Shown here: piece by piece, positions 10,391-27,696 of the stretch
How the letters are laid out: the number at the start of each line of letters is the position of its first letter
How positions within the stretch are numbered: position 1 is the stretch's first letter
NCBI RefSeq assembly: GCF_001465295.1
Contig: NZ_CP011034.1
Location: 810,001 to 842,000 of the forward strand
Length of the DNA stretch: 32,000 nucleotides
Direction of reading: 5' to 3'
DNA from: Pseudoalteromonas translucida KMM 520
Lineage (GTDB): Bacteria > Pseudomonadota > Gammaproteobacteria > Enterobacterales > Alteromonadaceae
Made by a program: the position numbers and the translations under genes
Notes under the pieces: generated by a model
The model's input: only the letters and a program-made list of their open reading frames with translations
Databases searched by the model: none
What the model was told of the DNA's origin: nothing

Positions 10391-11242
10391 ATGAAACAAT
10401 ATTTACAATTATGTCAGCGTATTGTTGATGAAGGCCAGTGGGTAGAAAACAAACGTACAGGCACACGCTGTTTAACCGTGATCAACGCCGATTTAGAATA
10501 CGATGTGGCGAATAATCAGTTTCCGATGATCACTACGCGTAAAAGCTATTACAAAGCAGCTATTGCTGAATTGCTCGGTTACTTGCGTGGTTACGATAGC
10601 GCTGCACAGTTTCGCGAAATAGGCTGTAAAACCTGGGATGCAAATGCAAACGAAAATAGCGCTTGGCTTAATAATCCGCACCGTAAAGGTGAGGACGATA
10701 TGGGCCGTGTTTATGGCGTACAAGGGCGTGCTTGGCAGCGCCCAGATGGCTCAACGCTAGACCAGCTAGCAAAAGTAATTAATAACTTAAAAAATGGTAT
10801 AGACGATCGCGGTGAAATAATTAGTTTTTACAACCCAGGCGAATTTGAGCTTGGCTGTTTACGCCCGTGTATGCACACGCACACGTTTTCATTATTAGGT
10901 GACACACTTTATTTAACGTCAATTCAGCGTAGCTGCGACGTACCGCTAGGGCTTAATTTTAATCAAATTCAGTGTTTTGTATTACTGGCATTAGTGGCGC
11001 AAATTACTGGGCATAAAGCGGGTAAGGCGTATCATAAAATAACCAACGCGCATATTTATGAAAACCAGCTTGAGCTAATGCGCGATGTGCAGTTGAAACG
11101 CGAGCCGTTTGCATCGCCGCAGTTAAAAATTAATCCAAACATTAAATCACTAAACGATATAGAAACCTGGGTAACACGCGATGACTTTGAAGTGACAGGT
11201 TATGAGTGTCACGAAGCCATTCAATACCCATTTTCGGTATAA
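10391..11242 (+). CDS. thyA: Thymidylate synthase
   Basis: 283 aa. [15 protein letters not shown]...RTGT, an active-site-like CMHTHTF region and [12 protein letters not shown] resemble ThyA. Confidence 0.93.
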
Positions 11243-11265
11243 CAAAACAGATTAAGGAAAACACC

Positions 11266-12144
11266 ATGAAAGCAGTGATCCCCGTAGCGGGCCTCGGAAC
11301 TCGCATGTTACCAGCCACCAAAGCAATTCCAAAAGAAATGCTACCGGTTGTTGACCGTCCACTAATTCAATACGTAGTTAACGAAGCCGTTGCTGCAGGT
11401 ATTAAAGAAATAGTACTGGTAACGCATTCAAGTAAAAACTCAATAGAAAACCACTTCGACACTAGTTTTGAGCTTGAAGCCACACTAGAAAAACGAGTAA
11501 AACGACAGCTACTTGCCGAAATACAGTCTATTTGTCCTAAAGATGTAACTATTATTCAAGTACGCCAAGGCGAAGCCAAAGGCCTAGGGCATGCAATTAA
11601 CTGTGCAGCGCCAATTATAGGTAACGAACCATTTGTGGTTATTTTACCCGATGTAATAATTGATGATATGGAAAGCGATCTTAGTAAAGATAACTTAGCC
11701 GAAATGATCAGCCGCTTTGAGCAAACTCAACATAGCCAAATAATGGTAGAGCCAGTACCAATGGCTGAAGTTGATCAATTTGGTGTTGTTGACTTGGGCA
11801 GTGTTGAGCTAAAACAAGGCGAAAGCTCGCCAATTCATAACATGGTAGAAAAGCCACCAGTTAACGAAGCACCATCAAACCTTGCTGTAGTAGGGCGCTA
11901 TGTATTAAGTAAAAATATTTGGCCATTACTCGCTAAAACACCGCAAGGTGCTGGTAACGAAATTCAGCTTACAGACGCTATTGCCATGCTAATGCAGCAC
12001 GAAACTGTTGATGCATACGCAATTAAAGGGCGTAGCCACGACTGTGGTAGTAAAATTGGTTATCTTAAAGCAACTATTGAGTTTGCACTACGTCGTGAAG
12101 AATTTGCTGACGAGTTAAAAACGTTTATTAAAACATTAATTTAA
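11266..12144 (+). CDS. galU: UTP-glucose-1-phosphate uridylyltransferase
   Basis: The track ORF (11206) overlaps the thyA end. The ATG at 11266 follows AAGGAAA and yields [28 protein letters not shown], the canonical GalU N-terminus. Confidence 0.93.
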
Positions 12145-12170: not shown

Positions 12171-12201
12171 AAAAGACGCCTATATGGCGTCTTTTTTGTT
12201 T
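12171..12201 (+). terminator. Rho-independent terminator after galU
   Basis: AAGACGCC / GGCGTCTT stem (12173-12180 / 12186-12193), loop TATAT, then TTTTGTTTT. Confidence 0.8.
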
Positions 12202-12301
12202 TATAGTCGTTAATATCGTTGTATTTGGCGATAAAAAAATTATAACTGCAGACACGCTGTAAATTATGATGTAATGTTTGTGTTAACTATTGTTTAATTT
12301 A

Positions 12302-12330
12302 TTGACTGCTAAGCTAAAAAGCACATTAAT
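12302..12330 (+). promoter_or_regulatory. Candidate sigma70-type promoter upstream of the envelope locus
   Basis: TTGACT (12302-12307), a 17-nt spacer, then ATTAAT (12325-12330), within an AT-rich 260-bp intergenic region. Confidence 0.35.
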
Positions 12331-12463
12331 TGCTTCAGTAATTATTGGTATAAAATAAACTAGGTAATATATCCAAGCACAATTAATAAAGTTAAACGCT
12401 TACTTATAAGAATGTTTAACTGAAATGTAAGTGTACTTACACTACTTTCAGGGCCGCGAATGC

Positions 12464-13141
12464 ATGTTTAAATATAAAAAAAATAATACTTTAATATTGA
12501 GTTTGCTTATACTCTTGTTTAGTACTGCTTGTGCAACTGCGCCCAACAAAACGGTATTAGTAGAGCCAATAAACGACTCGCCTGAATATGTGTCTATTAC
12601 TGCATTAGAGCTGGCGCAACTAAAAGATGCCGCAATGCAATGGCAGCAAGCCCGCTCTGGGATTGAACGACTTTTAAAGCTAGAAAAAGATATTACCTAT
12701 TTGGTAAACCATATAGATATTATAAATAGCAAAGCAATTGCGCAGTCTAGTCAAAAAGCTCGCAATCATTATAATCGCCCCACGCGCAAACAACGCTACT
12801 CGAGCACTGCTCAGCAAGCAATTAAACCAGCTTATAGTACAAAACCAACGGTAAAATTAAATACTCCAAAGCAAGTTTTTGCATTACAAGTTGCGTCGCT
12901 CGATTCCGAAAAAGACTTAGTTAAAGCATGGCAAGAACTCAATGAGCAAGCCGCGCCGTTATTTAGAGATAAAATTCGCACCAATGTTGAAACAGCAAAT
13001 GTTAATAATAAAACCTACTATCGATTAAAGTTAGGCGTGTATCAAAACTTTAAAAATGCCCAAGCCGATTGCGACGTGTTTAAACTTTATAAACTCGACT
13101 GCATAGTAAGTAACTACACAGATAAACCGGTAAAGCTGTAG
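12464..13141 (+). CDS. Lipoprotein with SPOR-like C-terminal domain (paralog A)
   Basis: The ATG at 12464 gives MFKYKKNNTLILSLLILLFSTAC, a signal peptide with a lipobox (the track GTG at 12431 is less likely). The C-terminus FALQVASLDSEKDL...NNKTYYRLKLGVYQNFKNAQADCDVFKLYKLDCIV fits a SPOR-type beta-alpha-beta-beta repeat pattern. It is clearly paralogous to 18884-19546. Confidence 0.6.
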   Translation: MFKYKKNNTLILSLLILLFSTACATAPNKTVLVEPINDSPEYVSITALELAQLKDAAMQWQQARSGIERLLKLEKDITYLVNHIDIINSKAIAQSSQKARNHYNRPTRKQRYSSTAQQAIKPAYSTKPTVKLNTPKQVFALQVASLDSEKDLVKAWQELNEQAAPLFRDKIRTNVETANVNNKTYYRLKLGVYQNFKNAQADCDVFKLYKLDCIVSNYTDKPVKL

Positions 13142-13215
13142 TTATAATTTTATTTAATTTTGTGGTATATTTTTTGCTTTATAGTTTGTAAGTAAATTAA
13201 TATGGCTGAATAAAA

Positions 13216-13803
13216 TTGAACAGACTGTTTTTAATATGTATTTTAGTTATTTTAGTTGCAGGGTGTAGTAATCAAAATACTGACGCCACACAGTTAAATG
13301 ACATAGTACGCATGGAAGAAATAAAACCTTACCTAGAACAATGGGACGCTAATAAAGATAAAATAACGCGTTTAAGCGAAATTGAAAGTGAGCTATTAAT
13401 GTTAGTTCAAGCGCTATCCCTACAAGCAGATTTAGAGACAGTACCTGAAAATATGCGTACAGGTGTTAAATTAGTTGAACATGGTACAAGTGAACAGAAT
13501 ATACAAGAAACAGCCCAAACAACTTTAACTACCCCACAGCAATCTACTTATGCCGTGAATTTAGGTAGTTACTTAAAAAAAGATTTAGCAATACTTACTT
13601 CGCAAAGGCTTCAAAAAGCATACCCTTTAATTTTTAAAGCGTTTCAATATAAAGTAAACACTCTTTCAAAGCCCAACATAGTGTTGCATCAGTTAATCGC
13701 TGGGCCATTTAATAATAAGCAAGATGCCATCATTTTTTGTCGAATCTTATCTAAAATAGACCTAGCCTGTAAGTTATCTCCTTTTGCTGGAGAAAATGTT
13801 TAA
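13216..13803 (+). CDS. Lipoprotein with divergent SPOR-like C-terminal domain (paralog B)
   Basis: A TTG start is the only one that retains the signal peptide MNRLFLICILVILVAGC (lipobox LVAGC), and the SD is weak. The C-terminus is YAVNLGSYLKKDLA...LHQLIAGPFNNKQDAIIFCRILSKIDLACKL. It shares a helical QW...RL..IE..L motif with paralogs A and D. Confidence 0.5.
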   Translation: MNRLFLICILVILVAGCSNQNTDATQLNDIVRMEEIKPYLEQWDANKDKITRLSEIESELLMLVQALSLQADLETVPENMRTGVKLVEHGTSEQNIQETAQTTLTTPQQSTYAVNLGSYLKKDLAILTSQRLQKAYPLIFKAFQYKVNTLSKPNIVLHQLIAGPFNNKQDAIIFCRILSKIDLACKLSPFAGENV

Positions 13804-13946
13804 TAAACAATAAGCTGTATTTATTGAATTAAAAAAGCGATTTTATAAATTTTTTAAAAAAGTATGAAATAATCCTAAACATATAATGATTTTGGTCGAT
13901 AATTAATTTAACCTAAATGTAAGGTTTATGAAAACATATCTAAGGA

Positions 13947-14543
13947 ATGAATATGAAAAAATTATTAACTAAAACTACACTGGCTGCATCTGTTGCTTTA
14001 CTTGCTTTTGGTGCTTCGGCAGAAACTGCGACATTTAACGCAGGTGTAACTGTTCAAAATGCATTTACTTTTCAAAGTACTGCAGATTTAGATTTTGGTA
14101 CTATTCGTGCTACAGCAGATACAGCTACAACCGATACAGCGACGCTTGTTCTTGCAGCCAACCCTGCAACATCATCAAAAACAGCTGCTTCAGGTGCGGG
14201 CGCAGAAATTGCAGTACTTACAGCAGGTACGCCAGCTTCTTTTTCAGTGTCTGGAGTTTCTCCTTTTGCAACACTAACAATTGATGCGACAGGTGTAACG
14301 GGTGCTATTTCTCCGGTAACAGCTCCTGCAGGTACTGCAGGCTTTACACTTAGTACTCCTACTTACTACGTATTAACAGGCGCAAACCCAAATAGTGCAG
14401 CAACAACAGCTATTCAAGTTGACTCTACAGGCGCTGCTACATTTAATATGGGTGCAACATTAACTACAGATGCAACAACCCCTTCAAGTGATTACATTGA
14501 CGGCGATTACAGTGGTACATTCACATTAATATTAGATTATTAA
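13947..14543 (+). CDS. Secreted fibre (pilin-like) major subunit, DUF4402 / spore-coat-U-like
   Basis: Signal peptide KKLLTKTTLAASVALLAFGASA|E. The start may be the ATG at 13953, which lies 6 nt after AAGGA. It has an N-proximal LDFGTI motif, very high Thr/Ala/Ser/Gly content, no Cys, and a C-terminal strand DGDYSGTFTLILDY ending in Tyr. That strand resembles archaic chaperone-usher subunits. The gene lies upstream of a PapD-like chaperone. Confidence 0.6.
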   Translation: MNMKKLLTKTTLAASVALLAFGASAETATFNAGVTVQNAFTFQSTADLDFGTIRATADTATTDTATLVLAANPATSSKTAASGAGAEIAVLTAGTPASFSVSGVSPFATLTIDATGVTGAISPVTAPAGTAGFTLSTPTYYVLTGANPNSAATTAIQVDSTGAATFNMGATLTTDATTPSSDYIDGDYSGTFTLILDY

Positions 14544-14551
14544 TAGTATTT

Positions 14552-14570
14552 GCCTGCCTTAATGGCAGGC
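14552..14570 (+). promoter_or_regulatory. Intercistronic GC-rich stem-loop after the major-subunit gene
   Basis: GCCTGCC / GGCAGGC 7-bp stem with loop TTAAT. Only a short T-run (TTT) follows. The 3' arm overlaps the only purine-rich SD-like sequence (AGG) before the GTG at 14576. Confidence 0.5.
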
Positions 14571-14575
14571 ACTTT

Positions 14576-15022
14576 GTGCTAAAACTTATTTTATTACTGA
14601 GTGCTTTTTTTTGCGTTCAGGCACTTGCTCAGGTGACCGTTCTTGAACCTCTAAACTTCGGTACGATTGTTGTCGTAAAAAATACACCTAGTAGCTCAAT
14701 CACTCTTTTACCAAGTGGCAGTAGTTCGACAACCAATATACATTTAATGCAAAGTGGACATCCTGCAGAATTGCTTTTTGAGGGATTCGGGGCACGAGTA
14801 CAATTAAACATAAGTGATACAGGTGTATATCCATCCCTTAGTAGAGTGAATGGTGGAAACGCTTTTATACTTAACAGTGTCATTTATGCTTCTTCTGTAA
14901 CAACAAACGCATATGGCATGGGGGTTTTAAAGGTTGGGGGGCAGTTAAGCACCAGTGGCGACGGGCAACCATATATAGACGATAACTACAGCACCACAAT
15001 TGAACTAACAATTTCGTATTAA
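14576..15022 (+). CDS. Secreted fibre minor subunit, DUF4402 / spore-coat-U-like
   Basis: GTG start and signal peptide MLKLILLLSAFFCVQALA|Q. It has the same N-proximal LNFGTI motif and C-terminal DDNYSTTIELTISY strand as the upstream subunit. Confidence 0.55.
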   Translation: MLKLILLLSAFFCVQALAQVTVLEPLNFGTIVVVKNTPSSSITLLPSGSSSTTNIHLMQSGHPAELLFEGFGARVQLNISDTGVYPSLSRVNGGNAFILNSVIYASSVTTNAYGMGVLKVGGQLSTSGDGQPYIDDNYSTTIELTISY

Positions 15023-15035
15023 GAGCAATTTCACA

Positions 15036-15866
15036 ATGAATTTATTTAAACTTTTTTTTATACTTGCGTGTGCCAGCCAGCTATTCATAAGCTTTAATAG
15101 CCAAGCCAATTTACTTATCTCCCCAACTCGTATTTCTTTTGATGAACGCCAACGCGTTGCCAAAGTGATCGTTATAAACAATGGCGATGAATATCAGACA
15201 TACCGTTTAGAATGGCAGGAAAAAACAGCAAAACCAGAAGGTGGATACATTACCCTAACTGATGGGCAGACACCTTCTTCATCATTGAGCAATATGGTAC
15301 GTATGAGCCCGTCACAGGTGCGCCTAGCTCCTGGTGAGCGACAAATAGTAAAGCTTGCACTTAGGAAACCTAGAGGCTTAGACGATAAAGAGTATCGTTC
15401 GCATTTATTATTTAAAGCCCTACCTAATGAAACTAAAAGTAATAAACAAGGAATGGGTATCACAATTAATATGATTTTGAGTTACTCCATACCAATTATA
15501 TTACGCCAAGGGGCTAAAATACCTGAAGTAGATATTGAATCTGTTGAAGTAATAAAAAATCAAAAAAATAGCGCATTACTTGTTTCGCTTGCGAAAACAG
15601 GAAATTATAGTGCTTTTGGTAAAGTTGAAGCTTTTTACCAAGCAAGTAATAGTAGTGAAGAAATTAAAGTGTCTATGATTAACGACTATAGTATTTACGC
15701 TGAAGTACCATTGGCTAGATTGACGTTAAGTCTATTTGAAAAAAATACAATTAAAGGGCCTGGTAAATTGCGTATCGTGTATTCCGGTTTAAAAGAATAT
15801 CAAGGTACCAAGTTTGCCGAGAAAATAGTTAATATTAATGTAGGATCATTAGGACTATTAAACTGA
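15036..15866 (+). CDS. PapD-like periplasmic pilus chaperone
   Basis: Signal peptide, then LLISPTRISFDERQRVAKVIVINNGDEYQTYRLEW. This fits the PapD_N pattern (i.PtRv.f ... v.v.N.g). MSPSQVRLAPGERQIVKL, EYRSHLLFKALP and SYSIPIILR also fit the Ig-like chaperone fold pattern. Confidence 0.62.
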   Translation: MNLFKLFFILACASQLFISFNSQANLLISPTRISFDERQRVAKVIVINNGDEYQTYRLEWQEKTAKPEGGYITLTDGQTPSSSLSNMVRMSPSQVRLAPGERQIVKLALRKPRGLDDKEYRSHLLFKALPNETKSNKQGMGITINMILSYSIPIILRQGAKIPEVDIESVEVIKNQKNSALLVSLAKTGNYSAFGKVEAFYQASNSSEEIKVSMINDYSIYAEVPLARLTLSLFEKNTIKGPGKLRIVYSGLKEYQGTKFAEKIVNINVGSLGLLN

Positions 15867-15874
15867 TTTTAAAA

Positions 15875-18865
15875 ATGCATTTCACATGGAGTGTAAGCTT
15901 AATTTTACTTGTATTAGGTTTTGGTGTGCAGGCATCTGTAAATAAAACAGATGCTGTGTATAACACTTTAGTTAATATTGAAAAAAAATGGCAAGCTTTA
16001 ACTTCTGAGCAGGTTAATACTGTTCACAGTAAAGAGCAAGCCACACTAATTAATAGTAGTGGTGATAAAAACGCAGGAATTCCTGTGGGAGAACTGTTGT
16101 TTTTTTCAGCGTACTTACGTCAATATTATTTAGGTGAATTAATTGCTATAAAAAGCGATAAAGGCGCTTGGCTTGAGCTTAATAGCTTGTTTGAGCAACT
16201 TAATTTTGCCATAGCAATTAATAACGAAAATTTAACTGCAAAAGGTTGGTATATTTCACAAAACAATCGTTTTGAGCTGGATTTAACTAATAAAACAGTC
16301 GTTATAAAAGGCGAGCTTTACCCACTATCTGAGCAAGATTACTACCTTGATGCTGGTGATATATTTATTGATTCAGCGCTTTTAAATAATTGGTTTGAGT
16401 TAAATTCAAAGCTAAACTTTAGTTCCTTGGAGCTTAGGCTTTCTCCTAAACAACAATTACCAATCGAGCAAAGACTACAGCGCGAAGAGAGAAAAATATC
16501 AAAAAATACTGATAGTTTAGAGCCCACATTACCTTGGAAAGCCAGTCCTTACCAAGCAGTATCTGCACCTGTAGCTGATTTCCAGCTTAGTTATTCTGCA
16601 ACTAAATCGAATAGTTCTTTAAATTACTCAATTTTAGGCTCGCAAGATCTCGCTTATTTAAAAAGTGAATACTACCTTGCTGGACAAAATGGCGATGATA
16701 TTAGGGATTCACGTTTATCTTTTAGCCGTGAAGATACAAGCGCAAGCTTATTAGGGCCATTAAATGCCACTAGTATAGAGTTTGGTGATGTACTTTCTAC
16801 GCAAATAGGAAGTAATTTTACTAGTAACTACGCACGTGGAGTTAAAGTAAATAACAAACCGTTGTATAAAAAGGTAAATAGTAATCAAATAAACTTAACC
16901 GGTGCAATACAGGCTGGTTGGGATGTAGAGCTATATCGGAATAAAATTTTAATTGATCAGCAGCTTAGTTTACCTGATGGGCGCTATCTTTTTGAAAATA
17001 TAGATTTACTGTTTGGGACTAATACGTTTGAGCTTATATTTTACGGGCCACAGGGACAAGTAGAGCGCAAAGTTGAAGAGTATTTAATTGACGGTAATAG
17101 CTTAAATGAGGGAGAAGGCTTTTATGAACTTTCATTAACCCAAGAGGGCGAGCAGCTCCTCACAACTCCCAATTACTTCAACGATCAACAAGGCTGGTTG
17201 TTAGCAGGTCGCTATGAGCAGGGGGTAACTGACTATTTTTCTGTTTATGCGGGGATATCGGCTCTAAAAAGTGATAACGCAGAGAGTCAAAATAATTATG
17301 CGTTTGGCTCTAATTTAAGTATTTTTAATCGTGTATTAATTAATTTAGATTATGAAAAAAGTAATGACAGTGAAAAAGAGCTTGAACTTGCAGCCAGAAC
17401 TGAGCTTGCCGGACAATCTGTGCGCTTTAGTATGCGAAAAGCATCATTATTAAATGCTAGCCAGCAGAGTAATTTATATAACGATATAGACGCTTATGAG
17501 TTATTTGTATCGGGTAATGTTATGCAAAATAATTATGGCCATTTAAGTTATCAAAACACGGCGTCACATATAAGTAGTGATACTCAACAAAGCATTCTTA
17601 GATTTGGAAATAGCTTAAACTACTATAATAGCGGCTATTCGTTTAATAATAATTTACAGTGGTCAGATAATGATACCTTTTTTGGTAGTAGCCGGTTGCA
17701 AAAACGTTTTGGACGATTGAGCACGCGTTTCGGTGTTAACTACGAAATTAAACCAGAAAGTGAAGTTACGAGTTACGAAACGGAGTTTAGCCGTAACCTA
17801 AGCTCTAATTTACAAGCAGAATTAAAATTAACACACCAGCTAGAAGATAACATTAAGTTTGTTGAGTTAGGATTAAATTGGCAAGCTCAGCTGTTTAGCT
17901 TAAATAGTAATTTTAATTACGATAGTGAGGATAATTGGCGTATCGGTTTATTTGGTCGCTTTAGCCTAGGGTATGACACTAAAAACAACAACTACTTTGT
18001 TAATAACCGCAGTTTAGTTCAGTCGGGCTCTTTAATGGTACATGTTTATCTTGATGAAAATAATAATGGTATTTATGACGATGGTGAGCAAAATTTAGAA
18101 GGGATCAAAGTTAAAGGGCTACAAAATTACCGAAGAGCGATAACTGATGAGCACGGTATCGCTTTATTATCGGGTATGCCAGCCAATTTAACCACTGATA
18201 TAGTGATTGAGCCCGGTAGCATTAACGAGCCTTTTTTAGTTGCCGCTAACGATGGTTTTTCAATAACACCGCGTGCGGGCTTTGTTGAATACATGGAAAT
18301 ACCGCTTAACAATAGTAGTGAAATAGAGGGCACGGTATATAAACAGCATGATGGTAAGCCCAGCGAAGTGCAACCATTCGCCACAATTAAGTTACTTGAC
18401 CAGCAGGGCAAACAAGTGGCGCAAACACAAGCTGCTTACGACGGTTATTATTTATTTACTGATTTACGCCCTGGTGAATATAAAGCCGTAATTGATGATG
18501 AGTTTAAAGAGCGTAAAGCACTTAAAGATACACAACAAATTATGGTGAACTTACCAGCGCAAGGTGAAGTAGTAATGGGCGTAGACTTTGAGCTTAAAGA
18601 AAAAGCCAAAAAGCCAGCTTATATTGCTAACGCGGGGCGTTTTTCATCGTTACCTATAATGAAAGCGTATTACCAGTTAATAAAACAGCACTTGCCTGCT
18701 GCGTCAAAGCGAGAAGCATTTTACATAAAGGATAAACAGCAAAAACGTTATATATTAGCTATAGCATACGCAGATTCAGAACAAGGTAAACTCGAGCAAG
18801 TATGTAATGAACTGCAAATTAAAGGCTTAAGCTGCGAAGTGCAAGCACAACTAATTAGCCATTAA
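15875..18865 (+). CDS. Usher-like outer-membrane protein with C-terminal beta-sandwich modules and SPOR-like tail
   Basis: 996 aa with signal peptide MHFTWSVSLILLVLGFGVQA. An usher-type motif is present: GWDVELYRNKILIDQQLSLPDGRYLFENIDLLFGTNTFELIFYGPQGQ (nt 16901-17085). A long region of alternating beta-barrel-like sequence follows. Next come an SdrD-B-like VHVYLDENNNGIYDDGEQNLEGIKV and a carboxypeptidase-regulatory-like IEGTVYK...DGYYLFTDLRPGEYKAVI (about 18035-18560). The protein ends with a SPOR-like YIANAGRFSS...RYILAIAYADSEQGKLEQVCNELQIKGLSCEV (about 18611-18862). The position after the chaperone fits an usher. Confidence 0.5.
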   Translation: MHFTWSVSLILLVLGFGVQASVNKTDAVYNTLVNIEKKWQALTSEQVNTVHSKEQATLINSSGDKNAGIPVGELLFFSAYLRQYYLGELIAIKSDKGAWLELNSLFEQLNFAIAINNENLTAKGWYISQNNRFELDLTNKTVVIKGELYPLSEQDYYLDAGDIFIDSALLNNWFELNSKLNFSSLELRLSPKQQLPIEQRLQREERKISKNTDSLEPTLPWKASPYQAVSAPVADFQLSYSATKSNSSLNYSILGSQDLAYLKSEYYLAGQNGDDIRDSRLSFSREDTSASLLGPLNATSIEFGDVLSTQIGSNFTSNYARGVKVNNKPLYKKVNSNQINLTGAIQAGWDVELYRNKILIDQQLSLPDGRYLFENIDLLFGTNTFELIFYGPQGQVERKVEEYLIDGNSLNEGEGFYELSLTQEGEQLLTTPNYFNDQQGWLLAGRYEQGVTDYFSVYAGISALKSDNAESQNNYAFGSNLSIFNRVLINLDYEKSNDSEKELELAARTELAGQSVRFSMRKASLLNASQQSNLYNDIDAYELFVSGNVMQNNYGHLSYQNTASHISSDTQQSILRFGNSLNYYNSGYSFNNNLQWSDNDTFFGSSRLQKRFGRLSTRFGVNYEIKPESEVTSYETEFSRNLSSNLQAELKLTHQLEDNIKFVELGLNWQAQLFSLNSNFNYDSEDNWRIGLFGRFSLGYDTKNNNYFVNNRSLVQSGSLMVHVYLDENNNGIYDDGEQNLEGIKVKGLQNYRRAITDEHGIALLSGMPANLTTDIVIEPGSINEPFLVAANDGFSITPRAGFVEYMEIPLNNSSEIEGTVYKQHDGKPSEVQPFATIKLLDQQGKQVAQTQAAYDGYYLFTDLRPGEYKAVIDDEFKERKALKDTQQIMVNLPAQGEVVMGVDFELKEKAKKPAYIANAGRFSSLPIMKAYYQLIKQHLPAASKREAFYIKDKQQKRYILAIAYADSEQGKLEQVCNELQIKGLSCEVQAQLISH

Positions 18866-18883
18866 AATCAACAAGGTTTAACT

Positions 18884-19546
18884 ATGCAAAATGTTAATTT
18901 TTACAAACGATTTTTAATTATAATAGTATGTATAGGCACTGCTTTTATATCGGGTTGTAGTAGTACTGAGCAAAAAGTGGAAACGTTAGATAAAGTTACT
19001 ACTCAAACCGAGGTTACTATTTCAGCTGAAGAATTAGATCAATTAAAAGCCTCGTCACAGCAGTGGCAGCAAGCTAAAGCGGGCGTAGAGCGTCTATTAA
19101 TTATAGAGCAAGACCTAAAGTTATTAATAAGCCAATTGAATGCGGTGGCACAAAGAGAATCGGCAGTAAACAGTAGCAATGTAAGTCAACCAGTAATAAC
19201 AGCAGAGGCTGAAGCTAATAAAGCAACTGCAACAGATGCAGTTGCTCCAGTGGAACAAATAGAGGAATACACGCAACCTCTTTTTTCTTTACAAGTTGCA
19301 GCGGTAACTGAACATGCGCGACTAGTTCAAAGCTTTAATGAAATAAAAGCAAATGCAGCTGAGTTATTTCACGGGGAATTTATTGCAAATGTAGAAACGA
19401 TAAAAATTAACGGTGTTACTTATTATCGTTTAAAGCTAGGTGCATACCAATATCAAAAAAATGCGAACATAGATTGCAATAAGCTTAAGCTACAGCAAGT
19501 TAATTGTATTGTTAGTCATTACACAGATCAGCCACTAAAGTTATAA
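18884..19546 (+). CDS. Lipoprotein with SPOR-like C-terminal domain (paralog D)
   Basis: AAGG SD and lipobox FISGC. SAEELDQLKASSQQWQQAKAGVERLLIIEQDLKLL parallels TALELAQLKDAAMQWQQARSGIERLLKLEKDITYL of 12464-13141. The C-terminus LFSLQVAAV...NGVTYYRLKLGAYQYQKNANIDCNKLKLQQVNCIVSHYTDQPLKL is near-collinear with paralog A. Confidence 0.6.
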   Translation: MQNVNFYKRFLIIIVCIGTAFISGCSSTEQKVETLDKVTTQTEVTISAEELDQLKASSQQWQQAKAGVERLLIIEQDLKLLISQLNAVAQRESAVNSSNVSQPVITAEAEANKATATDAVAPVEQIEEYTQPLFSLQVAAVTEHARLVQSFNEIKANAAELFHGEFIANVETIKINGVTYYRLKLGAYQYQKNANIDCNKLKLQQVNCIVSHYTDQPLKL

Positions 19547-19608
19547 ATAGATAAAGGGGCGGCACAGTACTTGCTTTATCTTTTGTATGTTTTTTGAGGA
19601 TGGCAACT

Positions 19609-20202
19609 ATGCGCCTTTTATTACCGTTATTATTAGTAAACTTAGCAGCATGTAGCTTAACACCACAGCCTGAGCCAAGTGTAAGCACAACTGCGCGTAA
19701 AGCAGCCATGGCACCTTATACGGTTAACGACTACGTAAATAACTTAACTTATCAGCTTAGTCACTTTAAAGGACCTTTAAGCGGTAATTCTCGCATTGGG
19801 GTAAGCAGCTTTTATTACGCAAACGCGCTAGATTCAAAGCTTCCCAGCGGCCAAGCTGAAGGTTTAAGCCAACAAATTCAAGAAAGCCTGCTAACGCAAT
19901 TCACTCAATTGGGATATAACACCGTTGAGTACCGTTTAAGTAATAATATAAATTTAGCATCTAACGCCGATAGCGTGCTTAGCAGAGATATAACTCAACT
20001 GCGCGAACGTCAGAATATTGACTTAATTATTACCGGCACAGTTACACGCCAGCAACACGCTTATATTGTTAATGCCCGACTGGTTAATATTAACAATAAA
20101 CACGTTTTATCAGCTGGCAGTACCGAAATCCCGATTAATGTAATGTGGGGCAGTGAAAAAGTTCAGCAACGCGATAATAACTTATATCGCAGCGAATACT
20201 AA
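19609..20202 (+). CDS. FlgO-like lipoprotein 1
   Basis: The ATG at 19609 lies 8 nt after GAGGA and gives MRLLLPLLLVNLAAC (lipobox). The core is RIGVSSFYYAN...LSQQIQESLLTQFTQLGYNTVEYRL...SVLSRD...DLIITGTVTRQQHAYIVNARLVNINNKHVLSAGSTEIP. This fits my recollection of the FlgO family pattern, whose fold may resemble CsgG/LpoB. Confidence 0.5.
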   Translation: MRLLLPLLLVNLAACSLTPQPEPSVSTTARKAAMAPYTVNDYVNNLTYQLSHFKGPLSGNSRIGVSSFYYANALDSKLPSGQAEGLSQQIQESLLTQFTQLGYNTVEYRLSNNINLASNADSVLSRDITQLRERQNIDLIITGTVTRQQHAYIVNARLVNINNKHVLSAGSTEIPINVMWGSEKVQQRDNNLYRSEY

Positions 20203-20215
20203 TTAGGAGCACAAA

Positions 20216-20908
20216 ATGAAAAAGCTATTACTTACATTATGTTTGCCATTGGGCTTTGGGTGCTCACAAATGCTAACAGGCATGAACTCAGACACCACAC
20301 AAAAAAATAAAAACAACTCAGTACAATTGGCTAATGGCGAGCGCGCAGTGGCAGCTCCAATGACCGACAACCAGGTATATCAGTCGGGGTTAATGCAACA
20401 TACTAATTATTCAAAATCGAGCACGCCATCGCGTAAAAATATTAATCATTATGTGCGTGGCATAATGCAAAATATGGTAGAAAACCTACAATATGTGAAC
20501 GAAAAAACACCACTGGCAGTTTCAAGCTTTGTGTTTTTAGATGATGATTACAACGACGCAAGTTTGTTAGGAAATCAAATTTCCGAAAGTTTCATGCATG
20601 AACTACACAGCTTTGGCATACCAGTTATCGACTTTAAAACTACCGATTATATGCGCGTAACTCCAAGCGGCGATTTTGTATTTAGCCGCGACTACCTTGA
20701 GCTCAACCAAGATCAAAACTTTAACTATGTTTTAGCCGGCACTTTAGTAAGCCATCAAGGTGGTGTGCTTGTAAATGCACGTATTATTGGCTTAGCCAGT
20801 AAAGCCGTAGTAGGAACAGCACAAGGCTTTATTCCTCAGTCAGTGGTAGATGCACTTAATAGTAGTTACAGAACCGATGGCATTATGCTTAAACAAGTAG
20901 GTAAGTGA
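20216..20908 (+). CDS. FlgO-like lipoprotein 2
   Basis: AGGAG SD and lipobox LGFGC. The core is LAVSSFVFLDD...LGNQISESFMHELHSFGIPVIDFKT...GDFVFSRD...YVLAGTLVSHQGGVLVNARIIGLASKAVVGTAQGFIP. It is paralogous to the genes on both sides. Confidence 0.5.
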   Translation: MKKLLLTLCLPLGFGCSQMLTGMNSDTTQKNKNNSVQLANGERAVAAPMTDNQVYQSGLMQHTNYSKSSTPSRKNINHYVRGIMQNMVENLQYVNEKTPLAVSSFVFLDDDYNDASLLGNQISESFMHELHSFGIPVIDFKTTDYMRVTPSGDFVFSRDYLELNQDQNFNYVLAGTLVSHQGGVLVNARIIGLASKAVVGTAQGFIPQSVVDALNSSYRTDGIMLKQVGK

Positions 20909-20915
20909 GGTAGTT

Positions 20916-21563
20916 ATGCAGCATAATTTAAATTTCATTATTATTACTTTACTATTTTTAGTTGGTTGCTCATCAAGTCGAACAGAAGTTAACCCCTCGA
21001 CTAACGATAATATAAGTTATGATTTAAATGAAATGCTTAAAGTAGTGCAAACAGAAACGGTTCATACCGAGGTTGATAGCACTCAATTTACCCCCCTTAA
21101 ACACCATAAAACTTTGGTTAATTATGTAGAGCAAATGGCGCTTGATTTAGTCGACACTCTAGAGTCTGGCAGTGAGCTTGAGGAGAGCATAAATATAGCG
21201 GTAACAAGCATAGTCGATTTAGATGCCACCTTAAATAACAGCAACCAGCTGGGTAACCAAATATCAGAAACACTCATTCATCAACTACAAAAGTTTGGTT
21301 ATGGGGTGGTTGATTTTAAAACGAGTGATGCAATAAACGTAAATCGTCGCGGCGACTTTGTTTTTTCACGAGACATAAAAAATCTCAGCAAAAAGCATAT
21401 GGCAAGCCATGTACTTGGTGGTACGTTAATATACCGCGCTAATGGCGTTACAGTGAATACCCGAGTTATAAACGTAAATAATAAAAAAGTCGTTGCCAGT
21501 AGCCGAAAATTTATACCAAGATACGTTTTAAACAAAGAAGATATCTACTTATCAAGTAATTAA
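20916..21563 (+). CDS. FlgO-like lipoprotein 3
   Basis: GAGG SD and lipobox FLVGC. The core is IAVTSIVDLD...LGNQISETLIHQLQKFGYGVVDFKT...GDFVFSRD...HVLGGTLIYRANGVTVNTRVINVNNKKVVASSRKFIP. Confidence 0.5.
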   Translation: MQHNLNFIIITLLFLVGCSSSRTEVNPSTNDNISYDLNEMLKVVQTETVHTEVDSTQFTPLKHHKTLVNYVEQMALDLVDTLESGSELEESINIAVTSIVDLDATLNNSNQLGNQISETLIHQLQKFGYGVVDFKTSDAINVNRRGDFVFSRDIKNLSKKHMASHVLGGTLIYRANGVTVNTRVINVNNKKVVASSRKFIPRYVLNKEDIYLSSN

Positions 21564-21621: not shown

Positions 21622-21696
21622 GGCCTCTTAGTTAAATGGATATAACGGCCCCCTCCTAAGGGGCAGTTGCAAGTTCGATTCTTGCAGGGGCTACCA
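21622..21696 (+). tRNA. argW: tRNA-Arg (anticodon CCU), argW-like, CCA encoded
   Basis: Hand-folded cloverleaf. The acceptor is GGCCTCT/AGGGGCT (G1-U72 and U5-G68 wobble pairs). The D arm is GTTA-AATGGATA-TAAC. The anticodon arm is GCCCC-CTCCTAA-GGGGC, giving anticodon CCT. The variable loop is 4 nt, the T arm is GCAAG-TTCGATT-CTTGC, and the discriminator is A followed by CCA. It is nearly identical to E. coli argW as recalled over the D arm. Confidence 0.88.
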
Positions 21697-21994
21697 ATGA
21701 AATCAATGAGTTATGATTTACCCCGTTGACCTTTCTGTTTCTGTGTAGCACATATGTAGCAGTGCTAACTCAGGCATTCAATTTAATAGAGCTTATTAAT
21801 ACTTCTGTATTTTCAACATCTAATTAAATTTAAGTAAAAATCCTTATATTGTGAGTGATTATCTTTCACTCTAAGCTAACCATAAAACAGAATGTAAATG
21901 TGATGCTAACTGACTGCGGTTATTCACAAATCTAAAGTAAGGCTTTAACTTTTTAGTGAGTGATTTTCTAAAAGTACTTTACCTGCAATGCGCA

Positions 21995-22026
21995 ATAAAA
22001 AAGCGAGTAAACGTAAATTTACTCGT
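21995..22026 (-). terminator. Rho-independent terminator of the DHH-family gene
   Basis: CGAGTAAA / TTTACTCG stem (22004-22011 / 22018-22025). An A-run on the plus strand gives a T-run downstream on the minus strand. Confidence 0.6.
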
Positions 22027-22049
22027 TTAAAGTCAGCAGAACCTAGAGC

Positions 22050-22982
22050 CTAGCCATCATTTGTAATTGTTTCAATTAGTTCACTCAATACAGTATCGGC
22101 TTTGCTGGTTTCTACTTGGCAGGTGCCGGCATTTAAGTGGCCGCCGCCATTGTATTTAAGGCATAGTTCGCCGACGTTGGTGTTTGAGCTACGATTAGTG
22201 ATTGATTTACCAATGGCGTAAACCACATTTTGCTTTTTAAGTCCCCACATTTTATGAATTGAGATATTGCAGTTGGGGTACATGGCATAAATAACAAAGC
22301 GGTTGGTGGCGTATATTGTTTCTTCTTGCGTTAAATCAAGGATCACTAAGTTGTTGTGAACTTTGGCGCAGCGGGCTATTTGTTGCTTAGCTTGCTCGTT
22401 ATGCTCATTATATAAAGCAACACGTTCGGCTACGTCTTCCATTTGTAATATTTCATCAATGCCTTGGTCTTTACAGGCATCAATTAGTTTCATCATTAGT
22501 TGGTAGTTCGAAATTTTAAAGTCACGGAAGCGACCAAGTCCGGTACGTGCATCCATAATAAAGTTCATAAGTACCCAGTCGCTTGGGTTGAGTATTTCGT
22601 CTTTTGAAAATTGTGCGGCATCGCCTTTATCTACTGCGTCCATCATTTGGGCTGAAATAGTAGGGAATTTTTCTGCGCCGCCATAATAATCATAAACAAC
22701 ACGGGCTGCCGATGGTGCTTGTGGGTCAATAACATGATTTTTAATGTTGCTTGCATTACGCACTGTTTCACTAAGGTGGTGATCAAACGCTACATGGCAG
22801 CCTGCGACGTAGGGAAGGTTGGTGGTGATATCGTTGGCGGTGATAGCTATTTTACCATCTTGCATGTCTTTAGGATGTACAAATAAAATGTCATCAATTA
22901 GGTCTAAGTCTTTTAACAATACGGCGCATACTAGGCCGTCAAAATCGCTGCGGGTGACGAGTCTAAATTTATTATTGCTCAT
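22050..22982 (-). CDS. DHH-superfamily phosphoesterase (NrnB / phosphodiesterase-like)
   Basis: 310 aa. The N-terminus has LVTRSDFDGLVCAVLL (DxD motif) and VAFDHH (DHH motif), and the C-terminal region has GGGH. Confidence 0.72.
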   Translation of the reverse strand: MSNNKFRLVTRSDFDGLVCAVLLKDLDLIDDILFVHPKDMQDGKIAITANDITTNLPYVAGCHVAFDHHLSETVRNASNIKNHVIDPQAPSAARVVYDYYGGAEKFPTISAQMMDAVDKGDAAQFSKDEILNPSDWVLMNFIMDARTGLGRFRDFKISNYQLMMKLIDACKDQGIDEILQMEDVAERVALYNEHNEQAKQQIARCAKVHNNLVILDLTQEETIYATNRFVIYAMYPNCNISIHKMWGLKKQNVVYAIGKSITNRSSNTNVGELCLKYNGGGHLNAGTCQVETSKADTVLSELIETITNDG

Positions 22983-25487: not shown

Positions 25488-26396
25488 ATGAATATGAACT
25501 TAAAAGATTTAGAGTATGTAAAAGCCATAGCGCACTTTAAGCACTTTCGTAAAGCGGCCGATGCGTGCTTTGTAAGCCAGCCTACCTTAAGTGGCCAAGT
25601 AAAAAAACTCGAACAGGAGCTAGGTGTTACTTTATTTGACCGCTCTACTAAACAGGTAACGTTAACTGCCAAAGGCGAGCGTTTATTAACACAAATTAAT
25701 ATTATTTTAGAACAAACACAAATACTTAAAGAGCTTGCTGCTACGTCAAACGAGCCGCTACAGGGTAAGTTAACTATTGGTATTATTCCAACCATTGCGC
25801 CTTATTTACTGCCGGTATTACTCACTTCAATGAAAGAAGCGTTTATTAATAGTCGCTTTTCGTTTATTGAAATGCAAACCGCTACAATTTTAGAAGCGCT
25901 AGATAACGGCGAGCTCGACTTTGCTATTTTGGCCGATGTACCCGAGCTCAAAAAGTACCATAGGGTTAATTTATACAAAGAAGATTTTGTAGTGGCTGTA
26001 TCACACGATAATTCATTAGCTCAGCAAAAAAAAGTAGCGCTGCGCGACTTACAAGGATGCAGCCTATTAATGTTAAGTGATGGCCATTGCTTTAAAGATC
26101 AAGCCCAGCAGTTTTGTTTTTCGGCAGGAGTTAATGTGTCGAGCCAGTATCAGGGCAATAGTTTAGAAACATTACTGGCGCTGGTGGCTATGGATGACGG
26201 AGTTACATTTGTGCCTAAATTGGCATGTACTGAGCGAGTGGGGGTTAATTATTTAGCTATTTACCCTAATCAGCAGCGCAATATAGTATTTGCATCTAGA
26301 AAGCATTACCCGCATTTATCGGGGGTTGAGCAATTGGGTGAATGGTTGTCGGCTCACCCTAATTTAAAGGCTAAATTAACTAAAGTCTTGAATTAA
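25488..26396 (+). CDS. oxyR: LysR-family hydrogen-peroxide sensor OxyR
   Basis: LKDLEYVKAIAHFKHFRKAADACFVSQPTLSGQVKKLEQELGV forms the HTH. LLMLSDGHCFKDQAQQFCFSAG aligns with E. coli MLMLEDGHCLRDQAMGFCFEAG, which carries the redox cysteines C199 and C208. The start may be the ATG at 25494. Confidence 0.88.
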   Translation: MNMNLKDLEYVKAIAHFKHFRKAADACFVSQPTLSGQVKKLEQELGVTLFDRSTKQVTLTAKGERLLTQINIILEQTQILKELAATSNEPLQGKLTIGIIPTIAPYLLPVLLTSMKEAFINSRFSFIEMQTATILEALDNGELDFAILADVPELKKYHRVNLYKEDFVVAVSHDNSLAQQKKVALRDLQGCSLLMLSDGHCFKDQAQQFCFSAGVNVSSQYQGNSLETLLALVAMDDGVTFVPKLACTERVGVNYLAIYPNQQRNIVFASRKHYPHLSGVEQLGEWLSAHPNLKAKLTKVLN

Positions 26397-27586
26397 AGGT
26401 TTTGGCTAACTATTTCGACTATATCGTTAATTTGCACGCCCGGAAGTGGTGCATTATTAATGCTTACCGCAATGGCGCTTTGTTGATACAACTGCTCAAC
26501 ACGAATGCTATTAAGGGTAATCACTTTATGTGGCATAGTATTGCCTAAAGCGTCTGTTAGGTAGTTGTGGTGTGCAATGCTAAGTAGTTGGCCTTTTTTA
26601 AGGCCATGCGCTTTACCTAAGTTAATCACTATGTTGCCCTGATCAAGGTGCATAATTTTTCCTTGAGTAGGCAAGCAGGCCATAGCTGATTGTAAATCGT
26701 AACTTAGCGTTTGGTTTATATCGTTTATGCTTTGCCCATAGGGCGATTGCCAAAACATACTACTGTTAACATCAACAATTGCGGTTTTTTCAAATGGCCA
26801 AATAGCTTGATTTTGATAGCTATTTTGCCAAAGCTGCTCATAAGTTGTGCCATCAAAAAGGGTAAACTCTATTTGGTAACTACGTTGATAGCTTTCGTCT
26901 TGCCAAAAGGCATAGTCGCTATTGAGCTTGTCGCTAGTTGATAGATTGGTTATTTGGCTTAATAAAACGTACTGCGCGTTACTGCGCGAAGAAATATCTT
27001 CTAATTGCGCATTAGAGTAGTCGTGTTGCTGCGAAAAATACTTATCGACCTTTATTGCGTTGTTGTAATAAGCAATTGGTACTGCGCTCATTTTTGACTT
27101 TTGCAATGCGGTATAAATATTTTTGCTAACGGCTTTATCTATGTCAAATATTTGACCCATGCGGGCTTGTTCACGATGATTAAGCTGGCTTTGGGTAACG
27201 GCCACAAACTTTTTAAAACTACTTTGTGGGCATTGCTCTGTTTGTGCAAAAATATCTAAGCGCAGTGTAATAGCTAGCTGATTATTATGACGCTCTTCGC
27301 TCACAAGCTCTATTTTTTGAATTTCGCCATGGCTGCTTATTTTAAGCTGATCTTGCATTAGCACGCCGTCTACTAAGGTTTGTACCGAGCTTACCCGCGC
27401 ACCAGAGAACACTAACGCTTGTGTAATGGCATCTTTAATTGCTGCAGATTTAGCTGCGCCTACATCGCTACTTTTAACTTGTGCATGGCCGGTCGACTCA
27501 TACCACTGCGCTGCAGTAAAAGGCGAAAACGTTAATAAAGCAGTTGCGCTTAGCCCTGCAAATACCGATGATAAAAACGAATTCAT
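26393..27586 (-). CDS. flgT: Flagellar H-ring-associated periplasmic protein FlgT-like
   Basis: 397 aa with a signal peptide ending FTAAQ|WYESTGHAQV. Length, the N-terminal pattern (AQWYE.TG.A), and a position divergent from flgP and next to flgNMA all match Vibrio flgT as I remember it. The assignment rests largely on synteny. Confidence 0.6.
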   Translation of the reverse strand: MNSFLSSVFAGLSATALLTFSPFTAAQWYESTGHAQVKSSDVGAAKSAAIKDAITQALVFSGARVSSVQTLVDGVLMQDQLKISSHGEIQKIELVSEERHNNQLAITLRLDIFAQTEQCPQSSFKKFVAVTQSQLNHREQARMGQIFDIDKAVSKNIYTALQKSKMSAVPIAYYNNAIKVDKYFSQQHDYSNAQLEDISSRSNAQYVLLSQITNLSTSDKLNSDYAFWQDESYQRSYQIEFTLFDGTTYEQLWQNSYQNQAIWPFEKTAIVDVNSSMFWQSPYGQSINDINQTLSYDLQSAMACLPTQGKIMHLDQGNIVINLGKAHGLKKGQLLSIAHHNYLTDALGNTMPHKVITLNSIRVEQLYQQSAIAVSINNAPLPGVQINDIVEIVSQNL

Positions 27587-27629
27587 ACATTTACTCCAGT
27601 TAAATTTTAGCTATTAGCGTAAGTTATAC

Positions 27630-27645
27630 AGCAAGGAGCGTACCA
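27630..27645 (-). promoter_or_regulatory. Sigma54 (-24/-12) promoter for flgT
   Basis: The minus strand reads TGGTACGCTCCTTGCT, against the consensus TGGCACG-N4-TTGCW. The -12 element ends about 43 nt upstream of the flgT ATG, with GGAG as SD. Confidence 0.6.
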
Positions 27646-27680
27646 ATGTTATTTGTGAGTAAACACCAATCAAGTGTCAA

Positions 27681-27696
27681 TGGCATTAAACCTGCA
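27681..27696 (+). promoter_or_regulatory. Sigma54 (-24/-12) promoter for flgP
   Basis: TGGCATTAAACCTGCA has correctly spaced GG and GC elements and lies about 45 nt upstream of the flgP ATG. Confidence 0.55.

Follow-up and report, generated by a model that had tools for sequence, protein, structure and literature searches.

A Divergent Chaperone–Usher System and a FlgO-Family Lipoprotein Triad Share an Envelope Locus of Pseudoalteromonas translucida KMM 520

Gene Content and Boundaries of the Locus

Between galU and a tRNA-Arg gene, the genome of Pseudoalteromonas translucida KMM 520 contains ten genes (A–J) for exported envelope proteins, in which a chaperone–usher system with a divergent usher stands next to three lipoproteins of the FlgO family. 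The locus was analysed within a window of 32,000 nucleotides (nt), meaning the whole stretch of DNA under study (contig NZ_CP011034.1, positions 810,001 to 842,000 of the forward strand), and coordinates refer to this window. The locus is probably a composite of two separable modules, namely a chaperone–usher system (B–G) and a FlgO triad (H–J). All ten open reading frames (ORFs) lie on the plus strand and match PTRA_a0850–a0860 exactly. A first-pass annotation had described ten same-strand genes between galU with its terminator and tRNA-Arg, and its gene order and spacing agree with the ORF coordinates. The genes and boundaries are as follows.

11206–12144: galU, left neighbour of the locus
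12171–12195, both strands: bidirectional terminator-like hairpin after galU, a 10-bp stem followed by a T run; left boundary
12464–13141, + strand: A, outer-membrane SPOR lipoprotein (PTRA_a0850, 225 amino acids); the ORF can be extended to 12431
13216–13803, + strand: B, lipoprotein whose SPOR-like domain is divergent; opens the variable chaperone–usher cassette
13947–14543, + strand: C, predicted major fibre subunit, DUF4402
14576–15022, + strand: D, predicted minor subunit, DUF4402; candidate tip or initiator subunit
15036–15866, + strand: E, PapD-like periplasmic chaperone
15875–18865, + strand: F, divergent outer-membrane usher of 996 amino acids
18608–18859, + strand: predicted SPOR domain of usher F (residues 912–995)
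18884–19546, + strand: G, SPOR lipoprotein, whose gene directly follows that of the usher and closes the variable cassette
19609–20202, + strand (alternative start 19594): H, FlgO-family outer-membrane lipoprotein (H-type); the 197-amino-acid form is the public one
20216–20908, + strand: I, FlgO-family lipoprotein (I-type)
20916–21563, + strand: J, FlgO-family lipoprotein (J-type)
21622–21696, + strand: tRNA-Arg(CCT), right boundary; strain-variable islands lie beyond

Each of the ten products carries a signal peptide or a lipobox, as the first-pass annotation had said. The translations show lipoboxes in six of them (A, FSTAC; B, VAGC; G, ISGC; H, LAAC; I, GFGC; J, LVGC) and signal peptides of the signal peptidase I type in C, D, E and F. 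The absence of cytoplasmic, regulatory and mobility genes was likewise confirmed for 12202–21563, and the tRNA was the sole match of an Rfam scan. From C onwards, the gaps between the ORF coordinates measure 32, 13, 8, 18, 47–62, 13 and 7 nt. The family labels given earlier stood in part when checked against Pfam, which returned SPOR for A and G, DUF4402 for C and D, PapD_N for E and FlgO for H–J, but no Usher for F and no SPOR for B. The labels of F and B therefore needed evidence from structures or profiles, and both held.

Subunits and Chaperone

The chaperone–usher core is real. What had been proposed as a chaperone–usher fibre machine was confirmed by the usher fold of F, the PapD_N domain of E and DUF4402 subunits with matches to chaperone–usher pilins. 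C matches DUF4402 with an expectation value (E) of 2.5e-6 and D with 1e-4, slightly under the curated cut-off. The family is present in 32 of 35 subunit relatives, and SCPU (PF05229) in one of the 35 at 0.047; of the earlier description of a major and a minor DUF4402/SCPU-like subunit, it is the DUF4402 assignment that Pfam bears out.

The model of C, obtained with AlphaFold2 from database homologues, has a mean predicted local distance difference test score (pLDDT) of 87 and is all-beta, with residues 26–40 outside the fold. C has a conserved N-terminal extension (...ATVTVQNAF...), in which V36, N38, A39 and F40 are invariant or nearly so, and ends in a tyrosine, as most of the subunits do. 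A comparison of N-termini shows that D-type subunits have no such extension. By a crude estimate, the median distance from the signal-peptide cut to an xFG motif is 7 residues in the short subunits versus 18 in the long ones. Subunits free of the extension are tip or initiator subunits in known systems, and an N-terminal extension outside the fold together with a second subunit type without it is a hallmark of donor-strand-exchange polymers. As a side observation, D is listed under RefSeq (WP_058372756) only, without an ALS (GenBank) accession, and the series of locus tags passes over a0853; the gene may thus have been overlooked in the original GenBank record.

A different view of these proteins is that they do not form a fibre and are instead monomers or a thin coat of the Caf1 capsule or spore-coat-U type, exported through F, in which case the system would secrete a coat or surface layer and would not be a pilus. 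C and D are indeed single-domain proteins rich in Thr, Ala, Ser and Gly with no recognisable adhesin domain, Caf1 and SCPU give weak Pfam matches in single family members, and the structural matches to pilins are weak. The strictly conserved extension outside the predicted fold and the second subunit type without it argue against such a coat, and Caf1-type coats are donor-strand-exchange polymers too. A non-fibrous role of the DUF4402 proteins is considered very improbable.

The PapD-like chaperone of the first reading is supported by a PapD_N match in E (1.1e-7; 32.3 bits against a cut-off of 23), and the domain recurs in 28 of 31 relatives. Arginine 32 (mature position 8) is conserved almost without exception, and an EYRSH motif without any. 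This arginine presumably corresponds to Arg8 of PapD, the anchor for the subunit carboxylate. The public name of E is "fimbria/pilus periplasmic chaperone".

A Sequence-Divergent Usher Ending in a SPOR Domain

The AlphaFold2 model of F was built on 40 homologues and reaches a mean pLDDT of 84. It consists of an N-terminal domain (residues 74–190), a barrel interrupted by a beta-sandwich plug (233–710), two C-terminal beta-sandwich domains (718–910) and a final domain of beta-alpha-beta-beta-alpha-beta topology (912–995). In a Foldseek search of the PDB, ranks 1 to 18 were all FimD or PapC (E 4e-26 to 2e-13), with up to 940 aligned columns, about 11% identity and a target-normalised template modelling score (TM-score) of up to 0.61. 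The sequence itself is far less telling: Pfam and NCBIfam assign no usher family to F, a profile search of PDB sequences with F found no usher, and the Desulfobacter homologue P0100 gives a sub-threshold match to PF00577 only (0.0065). Judging by its model, F is a structurally clear, sequence-divergent usher that ends in a SPOR domain, in keeping with the usher-like outer-membrane protein of 996 amino acids proposed at first.

The assignment of the last domain draws on a profile comparison, in which the C-terminus of F aligned with the SPOR domain of the A/G family with an hhalign probability of 99.3% (E 5e-20). Pfam found no match in the isolated C-termini of F and B or in the N-terminus of F, and BLASTP between the C-terminus of F and G returned only a C-x9-C stretch. 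The F homologues P0049 and P0100 have Pfam SPOR matches, and in other lineages the usher carries either a Pfam-detectable SPOR domain or AMIN. The peptidoglycan-binding module thus appears to be interchangeable on this usher family. Some F homologues of about 1,330–1,350 amino acids (P0114, P0100) have an N-terminal AMIN or Cu_amine_oxidN1-like domain, with or without a C-terminal SPOR domain.

No usher annotation is attached to F or to the named homologues that were looked up. F itself is publicly called "carboxypeptidase-like regulatory domain-containing protein", and the names across the family are "carboxypeptidase-like regulatory domain-containing", "MSCRAMM", "SPOR domain-containing" and "hypothetical". 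The second C-terminal domain of F scores as SdrD_B / CarboxypepD_reg in Pfam. An identity as an MSCRAMM or carboxypeptidase-like protein was rejected, as that match spans only about 60 residues. The public protein (P0001, 979 amino acids) begins 17 codons 3' of the ATG at 15875 and drops the signal peptide; the 996-amino-acid form, which keeps that signal, is the plausible one.

SPOR Lipoproteins and a Shared Helix

The three SPOR-like lipoproteins noted earlier were upheld, A and G by Pfam and B by a family hidden Markov model (HMM) and its C-x9-C motif. A matches SPOR at 7e-9 and a helix HMM at 3.6e-12, and its public name is "SPOR domain-containing protein"; the values for G are 7e-6 and 2.8e-16. 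B has no direct SPOR match, scores 3.9e-13 with the helix HMM and joins the A/G family by iterated HMM. The C-x9-C motif is common to A, B, G and the C-terminus of F. The lipoproteins share one build, in which the lipobox is followed by a conserved helix of the form ..EW..xKPxIERL...ExDLxxL.., a linker and then SPOR (a divergent SPOR-like domain in B). A profile search for relatives of these lipoproteins reached only Pseudoalteromonas, Shewanella and Rheinheimera.

Within the set of loci compared, the helix HMM matches 89 of 9,620 ORF segments, of which 84 belong to the SPOR family, five to the FlgO family and none elsewhere. The FlgO matches include long J-type lipoproteins of Paraglaciecola, Rheinheimera and two metagenome-assembled genomes (MAGs). 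In chaperone–usher loci of Cellvibrionaceae (L019, 13833–15239; L018, L021, L030), a lipoprotein combines the helix with FlgT_M (about 1e-19 in Pfam) and a weak FlgT_C, not with SPOR, and its gene follows the usher and SPOR-lipoprotein genes. In Cellvibrio japonicus, which is not among the species sampled here, Kaplan et al., 2019 (PMC6375700) report no FlgO, FlgP or FlgT candidates.

The FlgO Triad and Its Flagellar Neighbourhood

H, I and J are genuine members of the FlgO family, as the first reading had it. Pfam FlgO (PF17680) matches them at 3e-34, 9e-44 and 5e-43, respectively, the H/I/J family profile finds V. cholerae FlgO in the PDB at 4e-49, and I alone finds it by phmmer at 1.6e-35 (PDB 9YDS/9YFG). 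Identity to V. cholerae FlgO amounts to 24% for H, 41% for I and 44% for J. In a rough neighbour-joining tree, the family falls into H-, I- and J-type orthologues, three groups of old origin, and V. cholerae FlgO is sister to the I-type. One public name calls H an LptE, which was rejected because its FlgO match (3e-34) far outweighs that to LptE (2e-5).

In V. cholerae, FlgO is an outer-membrane lipoprotein that forms a C58 ring of the flagellar H-ring in situ (bioRxiv 10.64898/2025.12.02.691832), which makes the previously suggested analogy to an H-ring scaffold reasonable. In the window, a polar-flagellum cluster, which the first-pass annotation had missed, starts 4.8 kb downstream, at 26393, and its first part takes up 26393–32000. 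Its H-ring genes are listed below; flgN (−), flgA (−), cheV and cheR are further members.

26393–27586, − strand: flgT, with Pfam FlgT_N, FlgT_M plus FlgT_C
27742–28200, + strand: flgP-like gene for an LPP20 lipoprotein (Pfam LPP20)

H–J are not in the same operon as flgT and flgP, although J directly abuts flgT in loci L005 and L012. Apart from H–J, no flgO lies beside flgP or flgT in the window, to which this search was confined. In P. haloplanktis TAC125, the FlgO candidate of the flagellum is PSHAa0755 according to Kaplan et al., 2019 (PMC6375700), who list FlgT as PSHAa0761 and FlgP as PSHAa0762. Gene order suggests that PSHAa0755 is the orthologue of I. In Vibrio, Shewanella and Colwellia, the table of the same study places flgO together with flgP and flgT; in Paraglaciecola and Alteromonas, the FlgO candidate is far from both. 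In V. cholerae, flgOP is an FlrBC-dependent class III operon (PMC12607845). Homology and genome context make flagellar-type FlgO ring lipoproteins under their own promoter the best reading of H–J.

Promoter Motifs and Hairpins

Motifs of the sigma54 type were defined as GG-N10-GC with at most two mismatches to TGGCAC-N5-TTGC, for which the background is 0.038 per 160 nt. The promoter and hairpin candidates of the window are as follows.

13163–13177, + strand: sigma54-type −24/−12 motif TGGTATATTTTTTGC, 38 nt upstream of B
15803–15817: sigma54-type motif AGGTACCAAGTTTGC in the 3' end of E, 57 nt before the usher start, two mismatches
19560–19574, + strand: sigma54-type −24/−12 motif CGGCACAGTACTTGC in the G–H spacer, one mismatch
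27631–27645, − strand, and 27681–27695, + strand: divergent sigma54-type motifs between flgT and flgP
13876–13903, + strand: sigma70-like promoter candidate for C, TAAACA-16-GATAAT, 9 of 12 positions, consensus match only
14551–14571, + strand: GC-rich hairpin after C

The motif in the G–H spacer has many counterparts. Of 32 groups, 24 have a sigma54-type motif before their first FlgO gene, and none of the 50 internal FlgO genes has one, which points to a conserved promoter of H–J's own, presumably dependent on sigma54. Such a promoter argues against a single operon. Motifs with no or one mismatch also stand at about −37 before the B-type gene in L001–L004, L006 and L009. They are rare before subunit genes (2 of 94) and chaperone genes (3 of 76). 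The position of the motif within E, and before other usher genes, suggests an internal usher promoter. A scan for sigma28-type promoters gave nothing above chance.

Strong hairpins, often with T tracts, occupy the position after the major subunit gene in many genera. A hairpin behind this gene is the usual way to make more subunit than machinery, and the one after C probably attenuates or stabilises the transcript, which would set how much subunit is made relative to the machinery.

Sigma54 activators were set aside as a part of the system, being found in ten loci at 5–8 kb from the chaperone–usher genes and not adjacent to them. These activators (GAF, AAA+, HTH_8) occur in L037, L046, L050, L051, L059, L070, L077, L053, L062 and L066. 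They fit the motifs before the usher gene, though this may be a coincidence.

The first-pass annotation had taken all ten genes for one machine and a likely operon. Under such an arrangement, the FlgO and SPOR proteins would form a collar like the H-ring, anchored in peptidoglycan, around the usher only and would have no flagellar role. The shared strand, the gaps of 7–62 nt and the lack of any terminator-like site between F and J favour it, and the separate promoter motif of H–J speaks against it. Further evidence on both sides comes from other genomes.

Sister Strains without the Cassette

An I orthologue of the P. nigrifaciens/TAC125 type, 97% identical to I, occurs on 112 contigs. At all four distinct places returned, the gene order is galU, SPOR(236), SPOR(203), SPOR(217), FlgO(197), FlgO(230), FlgO(224). 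No DUF4402, chaperone or usher gene is present at this locus in the sister strains; an F-type usher elsewhere in their genomes was not searched for. A blastn comparison of the two alleles gives 97% identity to the end of A and then none across 13147–19009. The cassette-free allele has 1.03 kb in place of this segment of the window, which contains B to F as well as the 5' end of G, and identity then returns at 87–95%. Identity between the alleles is 95% for A, 97% for H, 97% for I, 79% for J and 56% for G, and the cassette-free allele has a different SPOR lipoprotein in the place of B. P. aliena has a nine-gene form without A.

The chaperone–usher cassette (B to G) is therefore strain-variable, and the three SPOR and three FlgO lipoproteins are constant. 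Because this set is kept where the cassette is gone, the lipoproteins must have a role independent of these chaperone–usher genes. The retention of H, I and J (79–97% identical) and of three SPOR genes without chaperone–usher genes at the locus is difficult to reconcile with a collar that serves the usher only.

The region beyond tRNA-Arg(CCT) also differs in content between strains (window 21622–22982; about 11400–17000 in L081–L084). The islands of the sister strains there encode an integrase and AlpA, a retron-like pair of reverse transcriptase and AAA_15/SMC-like ATPase, GmrSD, or YobI-type ATPases. The window holds an ORF of 310 amino acids (22050–22982, − strand) with DHH-like motifs and no Pfam match.

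Distribution and Co-Occurrence

Two peptide motifs of F retrieved the family from more than 572 GTDB species representatives across several phyla, and a profile search at E ≤ 1e-30 yielded 3,280 clusters (50% identity) out of 1.84 billion representatives. For co-occurrence, iterated HMMs were applied to 80 loci including flanks of 10 kb. About 76 of them combine F with the chaperone and at least two DUF4402 genes; these loci come from Gammaproteobacteria, Alphaproteobacteria, Desulfobacterales, Bdellovibrionales, Zixibacteria and Nitrospinaceae. The A/B/G family of SPOR lipoproteins is represented in 68–69 of the 80, mostly gammaproteobacterial, and the most frequent arrangement in gammaproteobacterial loci has a SPOR-lipoprotein gene after the usher gene. 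FlgO-like genes are present in 29 loci. The other 51 include those of Vibrio, Shewanella, Marinomonas and Glaciecola and all of the non-gammaproteobacterial ones. Of the co-conservation expected at the outset, the part concerning SPOR genes stood, but that concerning FlgO genes did not.

Where FlgO genes do accompany the chaperone–usher locus, they do so in at least four arrangements, and in Bowmanella and Rheinheimera they are interleaved with SPOR genes. Twelve of these loci (Alteromonadaceae, Rheinheimera, MAGs) have no FlgT or FlgP homologue in the fetched flank, which covers at most 10 kb and is shorter where contigs end sooner. For a single machine it can be said that FlgO has stayed with the chaperone–usher locus in Paraglaciecola, Alteromonas, Bowmanella, Lacimicrobium, Fluctibacter and several MAGs, in loci that are rearranged and show no FlgT or FlgP homologue in that flank. 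The J-type FlgO proteins with the helix module of chaperone–usher-linked SPOR lipoproteins point the same way, as does the FlgT_M lipoprotein in the chaperone–usher loci of Cellvibrionaceae, given the lack of FlgO, FlgP and FlgT candidates in C. japonicus, albeit another species. The 51 loci without FlgO genes, the 41–44% identity of I and J to the H-ring FlgO of V. cholerae and the fact that the window offers no flgO beside flgP or flgT other than H–J all count against it. With FlgO in only 29 of 80 loci, a separate promoter for H–J and cassette-free alleles, the notion of one ten-gene machine or operon is upheld in part only; that the I family contains the flagellar FlgO candidate of Kaplan et al. 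and that flgT and flgP lie 4.8 kb away is further evidence against it. A machine of all ten genes without a flagellar role is rather unlikely.

The opposite extreme would be a coincidence of neighbourhood, in which H–J, and perhaps A, are flagellar and the cassette is an unrelated accessory island with no functional or physical link to them. A block of thyA-galU, the locus and flgT-flgP is syntenic in Pseudoalteromonas, Rheinheimera and a MAG, so the adjacency could simply be inherited. The presence or absence of the cassette between sister strains, with identity falling from 97% to 87% or lower, would fit such an island, and so would the absence of FlgO from the sampled chaperone–usher loci of Vibrio and Shewanella, two genera in which, as in Colwellia, flgO is grouped with flgP and flgT. 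Coincidence, however, explains neither the N-terminal helix shared by SPOR, FlgO and FlgT_M lipoproteins nor why FlgO genes are interleaved with SPOR genes in Bowmanella and Rheinheimera. Moreover, the FlgO genes stayed with the chaperone–usher locus when the block left flgT and flgP in Alteromonadaceae. An accidental association is thus judged improbable.

Proposed Mechanism

With the locus read as two separable modules, the following mechanism is proposed. The DUF4402 subunits C (major) and D (minor) would be exported by Sec, held by the PapD-like chaperone E, and polymerised and secreted through usher F, whose periplasmic C-terminus is predicted to end in SPOR. B, G and the neighbouring A, together with the SPOR domain of the usher, would most likely fasten this assembly platform to peptidoglycan. 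H–J would most likely build outer-membrane-anchored rings of the flagellar outer-membrane complex (H-ring), as does FlgO of V. cholerae. The shared helix module suggests that the triad may also couple to the platform of usher and SPOR lipoproteins. The folds and families, the co-occurrence counts, the promoter motifs and the natural cassette-free allele were observed, whereas we infer donor-strand exchange, peptidoglycan binding, ring formation, the machine served by H–J and dependence on sigma54.

Several observations weigh against this proposal. The fibre is a prediction from genes and models. The top Foldseek matches of C, namely CfaB, CS17, FimG and PapA, are weak (E 0.02–1), and a profile search of PDB sequences with C and D found no pilin. 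By sequence, E matches no solved chaperone significantly (CupB2 only, at 0.29), and Pfam Usher (PF00577) has no match in F at E ≤ 0.1. The flagellar assignment of H–J draws on homology, position and promoter type only. The tree places V. cholerae FlgO with the I-type, yet J (44%) is as similar to it as I (41%). Finally, sigma54-type motifs precede 26 of 84 SPOR-lipoprotein genes and 22 of 80 usher genes, and because the chaperone–usher machinery and SPOR-lipoprotein genes carry this type of motif too, it cannot on its own assign H–J to the flagellum.

A tentative extension, which seems possible though doubtful, is that the lipoproteins with the helix module (SPOR, FlgO, FlgT_M) form a peptidoglycan-anchored collar of the H-ring type that is shared, or was exchanged during evolution, between the outer-membrane complex of the polar flagellum and the pilus usher.

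Comparison with Known Systems

The B–G module resembles the archaic (sigma) chaperone–usher pili, such as Csu of A. baumannii, CupE of P. aeruginosa and Mcu of Myxococcus, in the order of major subunit, minor subunit, chaperone and usher. Its small single-domain subunits with an N-terminal extension and an (L/I)xFG motif, the minor subunit without the extension and the wide spread beyond Enterobacteria are further similarities. Unlike archaic pili, the subunits belong to DUF4402 and not SCPU (PF05229), the usher is missed by Pfam Usher and carries a predicted C-terminal SPOR domain (AMIN in some lineages), helix-linker-SPOR lipoproteins belong to the locus, and sigma54-type motifs precede machinery genes. 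These differing features are absent from the titles and abstracts of the Csu and CupE papers and are not known from these systems.

With FimD and PapC, F shares, by structure comparison, an N-terminal domain, a barrel of about 24 strands with a plug and two C-terminal beta-sandwich domains. It differs from them in its identity of about 11%, in the extra SPOR domain after the second C-terminal domain, in the SdrD_B / CarboxypepD_reg character of that second domain and in the N-terminal Cu_amine_oxidN1-like or AMIN domain of some relatives.

The FlgO triad agrees with the Vibrio H-ring in the 41–44% identity of I and J to FlgO, the conserved lipobox cysteine and the nearby flgT and flgP, and its sigma54-type promoter parallels that of the FlrBC-dependent class III flgOP operon. 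It departs from the Vibrio arrangement in having three old FlgO paralogues and not one, in lying outside an operon with flgP, in being linked to SPOR lipoproteins and, in many genera, to the chaperone–usher locus and not to flagellar genes, and in the helix module of some FlgO members.

A peptidoglycan-binding domain on or with an outer-membrane channel, which positions a machine in the wall, is familiar from PilQ secretins (AMIN) and from tethers of the OmpA/Pal type, and SPOR domains recognise denuded glycan. In concept, the platform proposed here is similar, except that the channel would be an usher, not a secretin, and the binding module SPOR, not AMIN. The targeting to septal or new-pole glycan that the first-pass annotation had raised for the machine would be a further possibility. 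The searchable literature contains no link of SPOR to an usher, of FlgO to chaperone–usher systems or of the H-ring to SPOR, and nothing on DUF4402 or its accessions (PF14352/IPR025514). Nothing relevant was found in it on chaperone–usher systems in Pseudoalteromonas or on archaic systems with SCPU, and no description of an F-type usher system.

Implications for Envelope Machines

Few bacterial surface machines are understood as well as chaperone–usher pili, which are classified by usher sequences that can be recognised as such. Ushers are generally regarded as working without an anchor in the wall. The sequence evidence indicates that the F family is a large unannotated usher clade with a built-in domain predicted to bind peptidoglycan and with dedicated SPOR lipoproteins. 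Once it is recognised, the chaperone–usher pathway gains a large, mostly environmental branch and DUF4402 acquires a function. It would be a novelty in this pathway for an usher to bind peptidoglycan through a domain of its own and to be served by dedicated SPOR lipoproteins.

The lipoproteins that combine the helix with SPOR, FlgO or FlgT_M bear on how flagellar periplasmic ring scaffolds arose and on whether other envelope machines use them. If the tentative shared collar were true, a chaperone–usher pilus would be built inside a periplasmic ring scaffold of the flagellar type or, alternatively, the H-ring of Vibrio would have descended from the scaffold of a pilus platform. KMM 520, which has the cassette, and TAC125 or P. 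nigrifaciens, which are without it, form a natural experimental pair.

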